64,000 bases of DNA, from positions 43,879 through 107,878 of the forward strand of contig JBGVNN010000010.1 of NCBI GenBank assembly GCA_045125595.1, written 5' to 3'. The position numbers and the translations under genes were made by a program. Each line of letters begins with the position of its first letter. Positions within the stretch are counted from its first letter, which is position 1. Origin of the DNA: Candidatus Egerieisoma sp. GTDB lineage: Bacteria > Bacillota > Clostridia > UBA1212 > UBA1255. Under the pieces are notes generated by a model, which saw only the letters and a program-made list of their open reading frames with translations, did no database searches and had not been told where the DNA came from. Of this stretch, positions 13,150-60,206 are shown piece after piece.

Positions 13150-13464
13150 ACTTTTGAAACCTCTTTCTTTTAATTAGATGTTTTTCGTTACGTATAACAG
13201 CTCGCACCCGTTTTCTTGTCACCCCGTCGTGTGTTTCATGTTCATCTCAATAAAAAAACCAAATTGAAATATCCTTCTCTTGAAGGATTTCAACCTGGGC
13301 ATAGATAAACACTTTACATACAACATGATACAATATTCAAGTGCATGACTTGTCGCCCGGTTTCACGAATCGGACATTCTCCACATGAGTTACCTGCCAT
13401 TCACGCGATCAAACGTGGGGCAGCAATCTCCTGCTTCTCAGTCTGTCAAGTCGCAACAGACAAA

Positions 13465-55382: not shown

Positions 55383-56252
55383 CTATTTCTGTCTTGCCAA
55401 AGCAAAAACGGCGCCGAGAATCAAAACCATACCTATTACAAGTGGAGCAGTCAAGTTTTCTCCCAAAAACGCAACACTAAAAACAGTAGCAGAAAGCGGC
55501 TCTATAATTCCGAGCGCAGTTGCCGTTCCTGCAGGGACATCTTTAAGTCCCATTGTATAGAAAACATATGGTAAAACGCAAGTAAACACACCTATGCCAA
55601 CAATAAGCGGAATAATTGAAAGCGGCTGTTTGCTTGTTATTGTTACGATTTCAATAGGATTTGATACTGCAAGACCTATAATACTCATAATAATAAAATT
55701 ATAGCTGGTTACAGTAAGAGTATCCACCTTGTGCATTGTGAGAATTTTCGTAAATATGTTATAAGCACTGTAAGAAATGCCCGCCGCAATTCCGAAAAGG
55801 ATTCCTGCAAGGCTGAACTTCATTCCACCAACTATGCCGGAAACGAGAGCGCAACCAAGTATCATTAAAAACACAGAAATACTTTTTACTGTATTCAACT
55901 TTTCGCCAAGAAACATTACTGAATATATGAGGACAAAAACGGGTGCGGTATACATCAATATAACTGCAGTTGAAACAGAAGACGCAGCCATCGAGGCATA
56001 GTATGTATATGCTGTTAAGAACAGACCAACACCGCTACCGATAATAAAGAAAATTTCCTTTTTAGGCACTTTTAACAACTTGGGATTTTTAAAAAGTATA
56101 AATGGCACAATCAAAACCATTGATACAAACCCACGCATTGTTGTCATTTGAACAGGCTTAAATCCAAAGGGGGTAAGCCAATAAGAGAAAAGACCACTTG
56201 TTCCCCAAAGAACACCAGCGAGAGCAATATAAAAAAAAGCACTTTTTTTCAA
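55383..56252 (-). CDS. EamA/DMT-family transporter (TTG start)
   Basis: 289 aa, 10 TM, two EamA repeats; RBS AGAGGTG then TTG. Confidence 0.7.
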   Translation of the reverse strand: MKKSAFFYIALAGVLWGTSGLFSYWLTPFGFKPVQMTTMRGFVSMVLIVPFILFKNPKLLKVPKKEIFFIIGSGVGLFLTAYTYYASMAASSVSTAVILMYTAPVFVLIYSVMFLGEKLNTVKSISVFLMILGCALVSGIVGGMKFSLAGILFGIAAGISYSAYNIFTKILTMHKVDTLTVTSYNFIIMSIIGLAVSNPIEIVTITSKQPLSIIPLIVGIGVFTCVLPYVFYTMGLKDVPAGTATALGIIEPLSATVFSVAFLGENLTAPLVIGMVLILGAVFALARQK

Positions 56253-56278
56253 CTCGTTTCACCTCTAACGGCGGCAAT

Positions 56279-56307
56279 TATAGCATACCGACAACTCATT
56301 TGCAAAC
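56279..56307 (-). promoter_or_regulatory. sigmaA promoter for the EamA gene: -35 TTGCAA (56302-56307), 17 nt, -10 TATAAT (56279-56284)
   Basis: Minus strand tTTGCAAatgagttgtcggtatgcTATAATtgcc. Confidence 0.5.
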
Positions 56308-56397: not shown

Positions 56398-57846
56398 TTA
56401 AGTATTTACTGAATACTCTTTTTTAAACCCATGTGCACCGAATATTTGCCACTGGCCAACACCAAGACGACTAATAATAGCTTTACGCTCAATCGCACAG
56501 AGCTTATGATCGGTGTCAACAGAGGTCATTAAAATCGGTGCATATTGATTATATTCTGCTTGTGCAGGTGTAAGTCCATGTATATTGATATACACATCTC
56601 CTGTCAGAGCAATATGGTGTGTGTAGTCAATCAATATGATTTCCCCCGGCAAGTGTCCGCCTTTGCCTTCATACACCTCAAAATGCAACTCTCCGAAATC
56701 AAAAAAACCGATTTGTGTAAGTGGCTCTGTTAATTCTTCAATACTATTTCCTACAACTTTAATCTTATCAGGATTTACAGGTTTATATGAGGTAAGAATT
56801 TTACAGATATTAATATACGGCTTGTGCAAAGGATTTTTTTCTCTGTATCCATCATTTCCGAGAAATTCATCCTTTAAACAAAGAGCAGTTCTGGGACTGG
56901 CTATAATCTCATCGAATATTGGAAGCAAACCGCAATGGTCAACATCTGCGTGTGTCACAAGGATGGTTTTCTTTATCTCATCAAAATTCGGGAGAATTCT
57001 CCGAATAACATCAAGCATTTCACTGTTAAAACAAGCATATCCGCTATCCACAAACATTATTTGCTCATCGCTTTTAATGATAATGGTATTACTGCCGCAA
57101 GGTGGTTCTATAAGAATAATTTCTGTACAGTCTGTTATTTTGTGGTTACTTACCCTTGGCATGAAGGCTTTACCTTTAGATGCACCCAGTAATTCCGCAA
57201 ACTTACTTATACTGTCAAAAGTTCTGTATGGAGATAACCCTTGTTCATCAAGTGTTTGCATAGCAAGATTAACATGAACCAAAAGTTCACGACTAACCTC
57301 GTCAGAAAGCCCCATTGTTTGAGACAATCCCATAACATATGTGTTATAGAAAATACTATTGTCGTAAACCTTTTCTGAACTGTTGTAATTTATTACGCGA
57401 ACCTTACAAAACGTTTCTGCTTCTGCAAGGAATTCTGAAATTTTACCTGCATCTTCTACATACAACCCCATTTTAAAGTATTGATAATTCGTACCGTTTT
57501 CTTGAGAGCTGATATATGAAATATTAAAATTAAAATCGCTGATTAAAGACAATATATTAGTAACACTTCCCGGAACATCTTCAAGGCAAAACTCAATCAA
57601 CACCACGCTCGTTTTGCTTGTATTATTTTGCAGATATCCGATTTTTTCAAGCTCGCTATCAGCTTTGTCTAATTGTTCTTTTGTGCCTTCTGCATCTATA
57701 AACAGCGTATGAGAGTCAACCGCCTTATTATAACTTACACGAGTAATATTAATTCCCAAGGCAGAAAAACATCTGCTCGCTTTAAGGAATGCACCTATAT
57801 CATCAGGCATTGATGTCACATATGTTTTTTTCATCTTTACCTCCAA
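56398..57846 (-). CDS. ACT-ACT-metallo-beta-lactamase-fold fusion protein
   Basis: Two N-terminal ACT-like ligand-binding modules followed by an MBL domain with THADVDHCG (HxHxDH), downstream His/Asp ligands; co-oriented with DAHP synthase, 30-nt gap. Confidence 0.65.
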   Translation of the reverse strand: MEVKMKKTYVTSMPDDIGAFLKASRCFSALGINITRVSYNKAVDSHTLFIDAEGTKEQLDKADSELEKIGYLQNNTSKTSVVLIEFCLEDVPGSVTNILSLISDFNFNISYISSQENGTNYQYFKMGLYVEDAGKISEFLAEAETFCKVRVINYNSSEKVYDNSIFYNTYVMGLSQTMGLSDEVSRELLVHVNLAMQTLDEQGLSPYRTFDSISKFAELLGASKGKAFMPRVSNHKITDCTEIILIEPPCGSNTIIIKSDEQIMFVDSGYACFNSEMLDVIRRILPNFDEIKKTILVTHADVDHCGLLPIFDEIIASPRTALCLKDEFLGNDGYREKNPLHKPYINICKILTSYKPVNPDKIKVVGNSIEELTEPLTQIGFFDFGELHFEVYEGKGGHLPGEIILIDYTHHIALTGDVYINIHGLTPAQAEYNQYAPILMTSVDTDHKLCAIERKAIISRLGVGQWQIFGAHGFKKEYSVNT

Positions 57847-57876: not shown

Positions 57877-58905
57877 TCAAAGTTTATCAGCTATATCAAG
57901 AATAAGTCTTTCGGTCTTTTCCCAACCAAGACAAGGATCTGTTATTGATTTGCCAAAAATATGCTCGCCCATGCTTTGAGCACCATCCTCAATGTAACTT
58001 TCAATCATCAATCCCTTAACAAGACGTTTGATAACTGAATTTTCATTGCGGCTGTGAACAATATCCTTTGCAATACGAATTTGTTCAAGATACTGTTTAC
58101 CTGAATTGTTATGATTTGTATCTACTATTACAGACGGATTTACCAGATTCGATTGCTCATAAAGCTCTTCTACTCTCAAAAGATCCTCATAATGATAATT
58201 TGAAGTACTTCTTCCCGCATAATCAATATAGCCGCGAAGTATGGCATGTGTACATGGATTGCCCTCGCTCGTAACCTCCCAGCCTCTGTAAATAAAAGTG
58301 TGACTTGACTGCGCTGCAACTATAGAGTTCATCATAACGCTAAGGTCTCCACTCGTAGGATTCTTCATTCCCACAGGTACGCTGATTCCGCTTGCTGTGA
58401 GTCGGTGTTGTTGATTTTCTACGGAACGTGCGCCAATCGCAACATACGCAAGCAAGTCGGAAAGGTAGTGGTAATTTTCCGGATAGAGCATTTCGTCGGC
58501 ACACGAGAAACCGTAATCTCGCAATGCCGCCAAATGCAGCTCTCGAATCGAAACAAGACCTTTATACATGTCCGGTTTAGCCTCTGGATCAGGTTGATGC
58601 AACATACCTTTGTATCCTTGCCCGGTAGTTCTCGGTTTATTTGTGTAAACCCTCGGAATAATAACTATTTTATCTGATACTTGTTCTTCAATTCTGCGAA
58701 GCCTTGAAATATATTCAAGCACCGGTTCACTATGGTCTGCGGAGCATGGTCCGATTATAAGAATAAATTTATCTGAGTGGCCATCAAAAACAGCTTTGAT
58801 ACTCTCGTCACGCTCTGCTTTAATTTTTCTCATTTTTTCTGTCAATGGATATTCTCCCATGACTTCTTCCGGTAACGGAAGTCTCCTATGAAAATTCATT
58901 CTCAT
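57877..58905 (-). CDS. aroG: 3-deoxy-7-phosphoheptulonate (DAHP) synthase class I-alpha; start at MRMNFHRR, ORF-track extension to 59013 runs through the T-box leader
   Basis: GPCS, KPRTT, AIGARSVENQ and SITDPCLGWE motifs match AroG/AroF. Confidence 0.85.
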   Translation of the reverse strand: MRMNFHRRLPLPEEVMGEYPLTEKMRKIKAERDESIKAVFDGHSDKFILIIGPCSADHSEPVLEYISRLRRIEEQVSDKIVIIPRVYTNKPRTTGQGYKGMLHQPDPEAKPDMYKGLVSIRELHLAALRDYGFSCADEMLYPENYHYLSDLLAYVAIGARSVENQQHRLTASGISVPVGMKNPTSGDLSVMMNSIVAAQSSHTFIYRGWEVTSEGNPCTHAILRGYIDYAGRSTSNYHYEDLLRVEELYEQSNLVNPSVIVDTNHNNSGKQYLEQIRIAKDIVHSRNENSVIKRLVKGLMIESYIEDGAQSMGEHIFGKSITDPCLGWEKTERLILDIADKL

Positions 58906-58984
58906 TAAAAAACACCCTTTCTTTTTGTCAGATACAATACTTTCGAATTGTGGAAGGGTAAACAAAAACGCCCTCCGCATTCCG

Positions 58985-59265
58985 ATAAAGAATACAGAGG
59001 ACGAGAAAATCAATAATCCCGTGGTACCACCTCAGTTCGTCGCTACCTCACGATAGTGACCTTTTCAAGTACTAACATACCTTAGTTCTATAACGGGAAC
59101 GCCCGTTGCCTCCTACTAAAGATTTTTATCTTATTCAGTGCACTGCTAGCAGAATGAATTCAGAAGGGCGTCCGCTTTGCCTCGCACCAACCGGCAACTC
59201 TCTCAAGATTCTTCCCAACCTACTGGTTTCTGATCTTCGCATTTAGTGTTACAACATATTTAATT
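58985..59265 (-). promoter_or_regulatory. T-box riboswitch leader, probable Phe (UUC) specifier
   Basis: Minus-strand leader contains AGAGAG box (59198-59204), distal hairpin ttgcc-ggttggtgcga-ggcaa, specifier-loop candidate GAA-UUC-A (about 59155-59162) and the conserved T-box sequence aactGAGGTGGTACCACGGG (59018-59037). Confidence 0.65.
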
Positions 59266-59300
59266 GTCGTTTGTTGTTATAACATAATGGTTTCAAAAAA

Positions 59301-60206
59301 TCAAGACTTTATTTTAATCTCTGTACCTCCCCATTCGACTACGGTGAATCCTTTGCGCTCCGGTGCAGTAAACTCTTGTTGCGGTATTTCTACAAACTCA
59401 TCTGACTTTTGCCAAGCCATAAATACACGGATCAAAGTGTCGGGTGCAGGCGTGACATCGAGCTGTGCCGCATCTGTATATATTTCACCTTGAAAAGAAA
59501 TGATGTTATATGGATTTTGCTCCATGAGAGGCAACCAATAAACAATAAATTCATTGGCTTCGCGGCGCGTAAGTCCGAGTTTATCGAGCGCCGCCTCAAG
59601 AAAGGTTGCGGTGTTCTCTCCTTTTATACAAAAACCTTTGGAGAGATCATACTGTGCAAAAGTTTCTCCTTCCCAATAAAGATAATTATATGTTTTTCCT
59701 TTATTGTCAATTAAAGTGCCGTCCGGGAAAGCCGTAACTTCCCACCCTTTTCCGTATTTGGGGTATGTGCAAGTCAATCTGCCGTCGAGCATGAGACTGA
59801 CGGAAACTTGCGTTTCTTTTTCGGGGTAGAGATAAATAACAGGTTTGTAGTCTTTGAGAGAATCATCCTGTTCACAGTCGCTTGCTTTTTCCCAGCTTAT
59901 TGCTGTTATCTGTGCGGGATAGGACAACATAACATAGCCGCTGTATGTTATTTGTACCACATCACCCACTTTAGCGCCTATTTTTTCTAATTTTGTGATA
60001 TTAAAGGAAATTTTGGCATTGTTTGTTCTTTCGGGTTCACCCTCGATAGGTTCAACCAAAACAGAAGTGTCATTTATTTCTATAACTTTAGCGTAAAATG
60101 TCTGTTCATTATTATCTTTCTTAATAAAGAAAAACAACACAATCAATAATACAGCAAGCAACGCGACAACTATAGTAATAGGTATCCAAATTTTCTTTTT
60201 CAGCAT
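59301..60206 (-). CDS. hypothetical membrane-anchored protein (301 aa)
   Basis: N-terminal TM IPITIVVALLAVLLIVLFFFI, two beta-rich extracytoplasmic domains; a remnant paralog copy lies at 53060-53128. Confidence 0.55.
   Translation of the reverse strand: MLKKKIWIPITIVVALLAVLLIVLFFFIKKDNNEQTFYAKVIEINDTSVLVEPIEGEPERTNNAKISFNITKLEKIGAKVGDVVQITYSGYVMLSYPAQITAISWEKASDCEQDDSLKDYKPVIYLYPEKETQVSVSLMLDGRLTCTYPKYGKGWEVTAFPDGTLIDNKGKTYNYLYWEGETFAQYDLSKGFCIKGENTATFLEAALDKLGLTRREANEFIVYWLPLMEQNPYNIISFQGEIYTDAAQLDVTPAPDTLIRVFMAWQKSDEFVEIPQQEFTAPERKGFTVVEWGGTEIKIKS

Follow-up and report, generated by a model that had tools for sequence, protein, structure and literature searches.

The minus strand of the window (the whole stretch of 64 kb of DNA that was analysed) carries a leader followed by the genes of a DAHP synthase (57877..58905), a protein with two ACT domains, a linker and an MBL fold (ACT-MBL, 56398..57834), and an EamA-family transporter (55383..56252; Pfam EamA). 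An Rfam 15 scan of the whole window identified a single T-box, namely an RF00230 match at 59246..58994 on the minus strand (104.1 bits, E = 6.7e-22), which spans the model in full (positions 1-219 of 219) and lies above the gathering score of 93 bits; such a score and E value exclude chance. The covariance model thereby bears out the first-pass annotation, which had called a minus-strand T-box by reading the letters. The hallmark T-box sequence GAGGTGGTACCACGG cited there is present at 59033..59019 (minus strand), the AG box reads GAGAGAG at 59204..59198 (minus strand), and the distal loop CCGGUUGGUGCGAGG lies in Stem I, aligned to the Rfam model with high posterior. The range 58985..59265 proposed for the element stops short of the terminator's 3' arm; on the minus strand, the element in full extends from approximately 59304 (the promoter) or from 59246 (Stem I) to approximately 58959.

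The gene downstream of the leader encodes a type I-alpha DAHP synthase of 342 aa, beginning with MRMNFHRR at ATG 58905 on the minus strand and identified by Pfam, NCBIfam and homologues. The protein matches Pfam DAHP_synth_1 (PF00793) at 2.7e-46, and scores 257.5 bits on TIGR00034 (cutoff 173) and 348.3 bits on NF009395 (cutoff 343). The open-reading-frame track had started the gene at TTG 59013, a position that falls inside the antiterminator loop. The earlier proposal to move the start to 58905 is upheld by several lines of evidence: relatives at 86-89% identity are nearly all 342 aa long, orthologues begin with the same ATGAGnATGAATTT, the DNA homology begins exactly at 58905, the orthologue starts read ATGAGCATGAATTTCCAG (MSMNFQ) with unrelated sequence upstream, and the PDB alignments with E. 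coli AroG and AroF begin at query residue 8. The start is therefore set at 58905, and the gene model is corrected to 342 aa instead of 378 aa. The name aroG, by contrast, is not established for this gene. Ser occupies position 211 of AroG in the Phe-sensitive enzyme, and Gly is found there in Tyr-sensitive enzymes (AroF), whereas the residue aligned with AroG Ser211 in the window protein is Tyr (...SHTFIY...). Together with a score of 216.9 bits on the AroG model NF006723, far below its cutoff of 568, this led to the rejection of the name aroG, since the protein is not demonstrably the Phe-sensitive isozyme.

Upstream of Stem I, a candidate sigma-70 promoter was recognized by eye at 59276..59304 (minus strand), consisting of TTGATT (59304..59299), a 17-nt spacer and an extended -10 element, TGtTATAAC (TATAAC, 59281..59276). 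The candidate aligns with the TTGACA/TTGACT-17-TGnTAT... promoters of the homologous leaders at loci L007 and L024. A consensus scan returned no promoter-like sites in 58800..59400; it missed the candidate at 59304..59276 because the final base of the -10 element is C.

Stem I spans 59144..59241 on the minus strand, as delineated by the Rfam alignment, RNAalifold and pair counts over 10 homologues. Its base is K-turn-like, pairing UGC (59241..59239) with GCA (59146..59144), with GAA-GA on the bulged strand (Rfam alignment and sequence); by eye, the bulged strand UGC-GAA-GA fits the consensus, and the opposite strand reads UA-GCA versus the consensus GA-GC. Above it, the lower stem is formed by CAGAA (59232..59228) and UUCUG (59154..59150), 100% paired in the 10 homologues with one AU->GC compensatory change, and is followed by a specifier loop whose 5' strand is ACCAGUA and whose 3' strand is GAAUUCA. 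The AG bulge, AGAGA, is located at 59203..59199 (minus strand; Rfam alignment, high posterior). In the sequence alignment, both the AG bulge and the distal loop, which would form the platform for the tRNA elbow, are unchanged across the homologues.

A full-length Rfam match places Stem II, with its S-turn, and the Stem IIA/B region, with its F-box, at 59081..59143 (minus strand). The F-box helix is formed by ACGGG (59106..59102) and CCCGU (59097..59093), followed by UUA, and constitutes a putative pseudoknot; the pairs of Stem II and Stem IIA/B are kept or covary in the homologues according to RNAalifold and pair counts. Stem III, located at 59039..59060 (minus strand; pair counts), pairs GUCACUA with UAGCGAC and has AAAAG as its 5' and GAA as its 3' purine flank. 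In the homologous leaders, five of its seven pairs are changed on both sides and 98.6% of cells are paired, and the flanks AAAAG...GAA match the RRRxG...AA motif around Stem III that is reviewed in PMC7583486.

The antiterminator follows at 58997..59033 on the minus strand, where the Rfam alignment assigns helix A1 (GAGG 59033..59030 / CCUC 59000..58997), the 7-nt bulge UGGUACC (59029..59023), which satisfies the consensus UGGNACC, and helix A2 (ACGGG 59022..59018 / CUCGU 59005..59001). In T-boxes, a conserved G-U wobble at the bulge end of helix A2 serves as a steric sensor of the aminoacyl group (PMC7583486); in the window leader, the bulge-proximal pair A59022-U59001 is Watson-Crick instead of a wobble, and the sensor uridine is kept. 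The same pair is A-U in nine of the ten leaders and G-U in L101. Both antiterminator helices are 100% paired in the 10 homologues and nearly invariant; pair counts are thus uninformative for this part, either way.

The terminator, which could not be made out confidently by eye in the first reading, was located by a hairpin search and local folding at 58959..59003 (minus strand), and consists of a 15-bp hairpin (59003..58969) and a U-run (58968..58959). The hairpin reads CGUCCUCUGUAUUCU-UUAUC-GGAAUGCGGAGGGCG, with 15 pairs, followed by UUUUUGUUUA. Its local fold reaches -29.9 kcal/mol (z -3.35), and the hairpin is conserved in the homologues with G-U/A-U exchanges and one double change. The segment CGUCCUC belongs to both the 5' arm of the terminator and the antiterminator, so that the two structures are mutually exclusive. 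The folding alternatives that had been called for were thus both found, the antiterminator alone at -6.9 to -8.0 kcal/mol and the terminator-containing fold at -27.8 kcal/mol.

The minimum-free-energy fold of the full leader was uninformative (z -0.96), and comparative structure was used in its place. Since the leaders of orthologous DAHP synthase genes are nearly all devoid of a T-box, ten homologous leaders were aligned that are 83-89% identical to the window leader and derive from L007, L024 and metagenome contigs; the contigs were found by searching for a Stem I DNA pattern that leaves out the specifier. Pair counts, made on the antiterminator-form T-box structure that we specified, found 95.2% of cells paired versus 42-58% for slid partners. 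Furthermore, 13 pairs were changed on both sides, a number reached in 0 of 500 shuffles, and RNAalifold on the ten leaders detected double changes in 17 of 77 pairs.

The specifier is UUC (Phe) at 59156..59158 on the minus strand, preceded by GAA of the S-turn (59161..59159) and followed by A59155. The candidate GAA-UUC-A put forward in the first-pass annotation is hereby sited at 59161..59155, with a Phe reading that is sustained by its canonical position, its invariance in the ten leaders, the covariation of the adjacent stem and the presence of pheA in the T-box operons of relatives. GAAUUC is invariant in 10/10 homologous leaders, and the next base is A in eight of them and C, not a purine, in the other two (L024 and L101). 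The specifier adjoins, on the 5' side, the lower stem CAGAA/UUCUG, in which the AU->GC swap occurs in L097, and the window leader displays the complete specifier-loop layout of S-turn (AGUA/GAA), codon, purine and stem. In addition, the UGGU of the bulge agrees with an A discriminator, as had been suggested, and bacterial tRNA-Phe has A73, which fits UGGU. Within the 64-kb window, no tRNA genes were found, tRNA-Phe included.

A specifier read one base further on (UCA, or UCC in two relatives; Ser) or one base earlier (AUU; Ile) would make the leader a sensor of tRNA-Ser or tRNA-Ile, and such a shift draws on the uncertainty of the Rfam alignment at this point, where the posterior is about 5, one deletion and one insertion occur, and the lower stem is drawn with only 4 bp. 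The +1 register also renders the A->C change in L024 and L101 synonymous, UCA and UCC both being Ser codons. However, the fifth pair of the lower stem (A59228-U59154) does not vary and the pair next to it covaries AU->GC, and the stem therefore begins directly after A59155. In the +1 register, moreover, a U would follow the codon in 10/10 leaders, against the purine that is preferred after the specifier codon (PMC7583486). The genes behind the T-box of relatives, which encode PheA, DAHP synthase, TyrA and a PaaK-like ligase, also speak for phenylalanine. The solved glyQ Stem I has the order GAA-codon-purine-stem, which counts against a shifted register, and UGGU wants an A discriminator, whereas bacterial tRNA-Ser carries G73. 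On stem pairing and covariation, the post-codon U, the UGGU bulge and the gene content, the Ser and Ile registers were rejected as highly improbable.

With the UUC codon retained as the specifier, the leader is very probably a canonical transcription-attenuating T-box riboswitch with a predicted specificity for tRNA-Phe, as judged from sequence and comparative structure. Transcription would start at approximately 59270, and Stem I would offer its UUC specifier to the tRNA-Phe anticodon, GAA. When this tRNA is uncharged, its free NCCA end would pair with UGGU of the 7-nt bulge and stabilise the weak antiterminator (59033..58997), which in turn would block the terminator (59003..58969) through the shared CGUCCUC and allow read-through into the genes of DAHP synthase and ACT-MBL. 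When tRNA-Phe is charged, the terminator would form and transcription would halt. As a regulatory annotation, entry into the aromatic pathway in an uncultured gut or rumen Clostridia lineage would accordingly follow the charging of tRNA-Phe.

A mosaic origin of the locus is apparent from blastn. The segment 59277..58924 is 83-89% identical to PaaK-type leaders, 58905..57879 matches the DAHP synthase genes of relatives, and for 57833..56408 the match is ACT-MBL from L007. Past the terminator, the 5'UTR (58906..58958, minus strand; side-by-side sequences and blastn) retains homology to the PaaK-type leaders down to the ribosome-binding site AAAGGGUG (58920..58913); in the side-by-side comparison this homology runs to the ribosome-binding site AAAGAAAGGGTG and then gives way to the ATG of the DAHP synthase gene, placing the putative deletion breakpoint within 58923..58906. 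The junction of T-box and DAHP synthase is repeated in three independent metagenome assemblies (L004-L006, approximately 99% identical to the window) and hence is not an assembly artefact. In all of 80 species-level genomes, the 500 nt ahead of the orthologous DAHP synthase gene lack a T-box core, and only L024 has a T-box within 3 kb of it. The direct junction is thus not conserved; it occurs in this species alone and is probably the product of a recent deletion. On the simplest reading, the deletion would have taken paaK, the ACT-pair gene and a leader-peptide attenuator, and fused the leader, ribosome-binding site included, to the start of the DAHP synthase gene. Since the fusion is recent, conservation is no proof that the switch is used at its new site.

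The same leader heads an operon of a PaaK-like ligase and an ACT-pair protein in related Oscillospiraceae/Acutalibacteraceae, and some of these operons run on into the genes of DAHP synthase, PheA and TyrA. In L092, the order is T-box, paaK-like gene, ACT pair, a 37-nt gap, DAHP synthase, pheA and tyrA; in L024, a leader-peptide region takes the place between the ACT pair and DAHP synthase in an otherwise corresponding series from T-box to tyrA. L014, a locus that begins inside paaK, continues with the ACT pair, a leader-peptide region, DAHP synthase and pheA, and L007 contains T-box, paaK-like gene, ACT pair, 4HBT, MaoC and ACT-MBL. The pheA gene (chorismate mutase/prephenate dehydratase) occurs in the T-box operons of L092 and L095. 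The ligase behind the T-box scores 531.9 bits on TIGR02155, and its position behind a Phe T-box fits an induction of phenylalanine synthesis from phenylacetate when tRNA-Phe is uncharged. A Phe (UUC) T-box of this lineage stands before a PaaK-like ligase and a 143-aa ACT-pair protein at L007:1799-3925, L092:903-3039, L093:3716-5804, L095, L097 and L098. At L094:1-935, a copy of the T-box that is truncated by the contig start precedes a 215-aa HTH (XRE-type) protein and not a PaaK-like gene, which may be another rearrangement.

The DAHP synthase genes of close relatives are preceded by a different kind of leader. In 12 of the 15 closest genome loci, a short Phe/Tyr-rich open reading frame, such as MSANKFFYYFYYYSKGCPMIEFKR, lies 176-331 nt before the DAHP synthase gene; no such leader ORF was found in the window. 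Across L011-L025 (12/15; e.g., L017:2770-3000, L024:2625-3000 and L014:1865-2083), it contains 6-8 consecutive Phe/Tyr codons followed by K-G-C-P (…FYYFYYF-KGCP…). The stretch that encodes KGCP, GGGCUGCCCG, is able to pair with CGGACAGUCC, whose 3' part doubles as the 5' arm of a terminator with a U-run, GUCCGCAU…AUGCGGAC. By its sequence, the element looks like a classical Phe/Tyr leader-peptide attenuator; this clostridial leader peptide had no Rfam match at the gathering score. Most close relatives thereby resemble the leader-peptide attenuation of E. coli pheA/pheST and of uORFC-13-1 in Acholeplasma, in which a short ORF is followed by a terminator, whereas the window would have lost that element and carries a T-box instead. 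The uORFC-13-1 motif, located before aroF in Acholeplasma, is described as leader-peptide attenuation in PMC8632094. For one and the same gene, the locus would thus offer a clean natural example of regulatory replacement, with a T-box acquired by deletion set against the Phe/Tyr leader peptide of close relatives.

The restricted distribution of the junction gives some ground for regarding the leader as an inactive relic, with the DAHP synthase and ACT-MBL genes constitutive or under another signal: the junction is limited to this species, with a T-box core within 500 nt upstream in 0/80 genomes and within 3 kb only in L024, and the assemblies L004-L006, at approximately 99% identity to the window, provide no gauge of conservation after the fusion. 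Nevertheless, all functional elements are intact, including the promoter-like site, specifier, bulge, antiterminator, strong terminator and ribosome-binding site, and an intact 15-bp terminator deprived of a working antiterminator would silence the sole DAHP synthase seen in the window. The consensus scan of 58800..59400 also included the stretch from the terminator to the start codon and found no promoter-like site there, and the same T-box stands ahead of DAHP synthase, pheA and tyrA in L092, where the arrangement is an independent one. Loss of function is accordingly considered improbable. Even less probable, and rejected here, is a translational mode in which the leader would sequester the ribosome-binding site, as in actinobacterial T-boxes. 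Although both transcriptional and translational modes exist among T-boxes (PMC7583486), a 15-bp G+C-rich hairpin followed by UUUUUGUUU comes directly after the antiterminator of the window leader, and the ribosome-binding site (58920..58913) lies approximately 40 nt past the U-run, outside both alternative hairpins.

Compared with the transcriptional class of RF00230 with long Stem I and Stem II, exemplified by Bacillus subtilis tyrS and glyQS, the window leader has the same domains, namely a K-turn-like base, specifier loop/S-turn, AG bulge, distal loop, Stem II, IIA/B with F-box, Stem III, UGGUACC bulge and terminator. It differs from this class in the first pair of helix A2 (A-U, not G-U) and in the non-bulged strand of the K-turn (UA, not GA). 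Instead of a tRNA synthetase, it has a DAHP synthase and an ACT-MBL protein as its targets. The placement of T-boxes ahead of aromatic-pathway genes is already established. A Tyr T-box precedes a shikimate-to-tyrosine operon in the Bacillus cereus group (Wels et al. 2008, PMC2494555, citing Panina et al. 2003), and T-boxes also occur before chorismate mutase and trpE in Firmicutes (Wels et al. 2008, PMC2494555). Like these, the window leader stands ahead of a gene of the shikimate/aromatic pathway, and expression of the pathway would likewise be tied to tRNA charging; the leader differs from them in its Phe specifier, its uncultured Oscillospiraceae/Acutalibacteraceae host and its type I-alpha DAHP synthase target. 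A literature search returned no report of a T-box with DAHP synthase or phenylacetate-CoA ligase; the main comparative survey lay outside this search, and novelty is not claimed.

The ACT-MBL gene begins 42 nt downstream of the DAHP synthase gene, and no terminator was found between the two. It encodes an ACT-ACT-linker-MBL-fold protein of 478 aa (56398..57834, minus strand; Pfam ACT and Lactamase_B), and its start is set at MKKTYV, 57834, and not at TTG 57846, because homologues are 478 aa long. The AlphaFold2 model (mean pLDDT 87.3) displays two ACT domains, a helical linker and the MBL fold. Conserved residues are H295, D297, D299, H300, H394, D413 and H468; the metal motif is HxDxDH versus HxHxDH of the superfamily, with the downstream His, Asp and His kept. 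Asp replaces the second His of the metal motif throughout the family (T-H-A-D-V-D-H). HxExDH is typical of diiron flavoproteins, and the substitution in ACT-MBL resembles this motif more than that of a zinc hydrolase. Foldseek retrieved generic MBL folds only, including BcII (E 1.5e-8), a flavodiiron protein and the diiron sensor ODP, and a PDB sequence search yielded marginal matches only. The family comprises >3900 homologues in 587 clusters at 50% identity, which are named only "MBL fold metallo-hydrolase", with no functional name among them.

Close orthologues of ACT-MBL usually sit after a MaoC-like gene. Distant homologues are found amid unrelated genes, such as those of uronate catabolism or PAS/STAS proteins, and the family as a whole therefore has no tie to aromatic metabolism. 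At L001:4350-4544 and L002:2160-2354, which belong to a related Ruminococcus-like genome, a Gut-1 RNA (RF01706, 59.5 bits) lies within 50 nt downstream of a tRNA gene, and the two sit between rplQ and a MaoC/ACT-MBL pair. Where relatives normally have pheA, the window has the ACT-MBL gene, and homologues of paaK, ACT-pair, pheA, tyrA, MaoC and 4HBT genes were not found elsewhere in the window. The link between ACT-MBL and phenylalanine is drawn from its two arrangements behind a T-box (the window and L007) and from its standing in the place of pheA. For the ACT-ACT-MBL family, with its >3900 homologues, and for the PaaK-like ligase, this tie to phenylalanine limitation constitutes a testable functional lead. 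A broader and rather doubtful proposal is that the Phe T-box of this clade marks an uncharacterised set of enzymes induced by phenylalanine starvation, comprising the PaaK-like aryl-acetate-CoA ligase, the ACT-pair protein, hot-dog proteins of the PaaI-like and PaaZ-C-like kinds, and ACT-ACT-MBL with its unusual HxDxDH metal site. If true, ACT-MBL, given its place after the DAHP synthase gene, could be a novel enzyme that is gated by amino acids and serves the supply of phenylalanine, for example in a phenylacetate-to-phenylalanine route of gut and rumen anaerobes.

The EamA-family transporter gene (55383..56252, minus strand) is separated from the ACT-MBL gene by a 145-nt gap, in which no terminator-like site was found, and it is possibly part of the same transcript as the T-box genes. 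Within this gap, a strong promoter-like site, TTGCAA-17-TGcTATAAT with an extended -10, lies at 56305..56277 (minus strand), and the transporter may consequently be transcribed independently of the T-box. Elsewhere in the window, an S10-Clostridia ribosomal-protein leader (RF03136) is located at 13350..13448 on the minus strand (37.2 bits versus a threshold of 35.1), which supports the Clostridia origin of the DNA.
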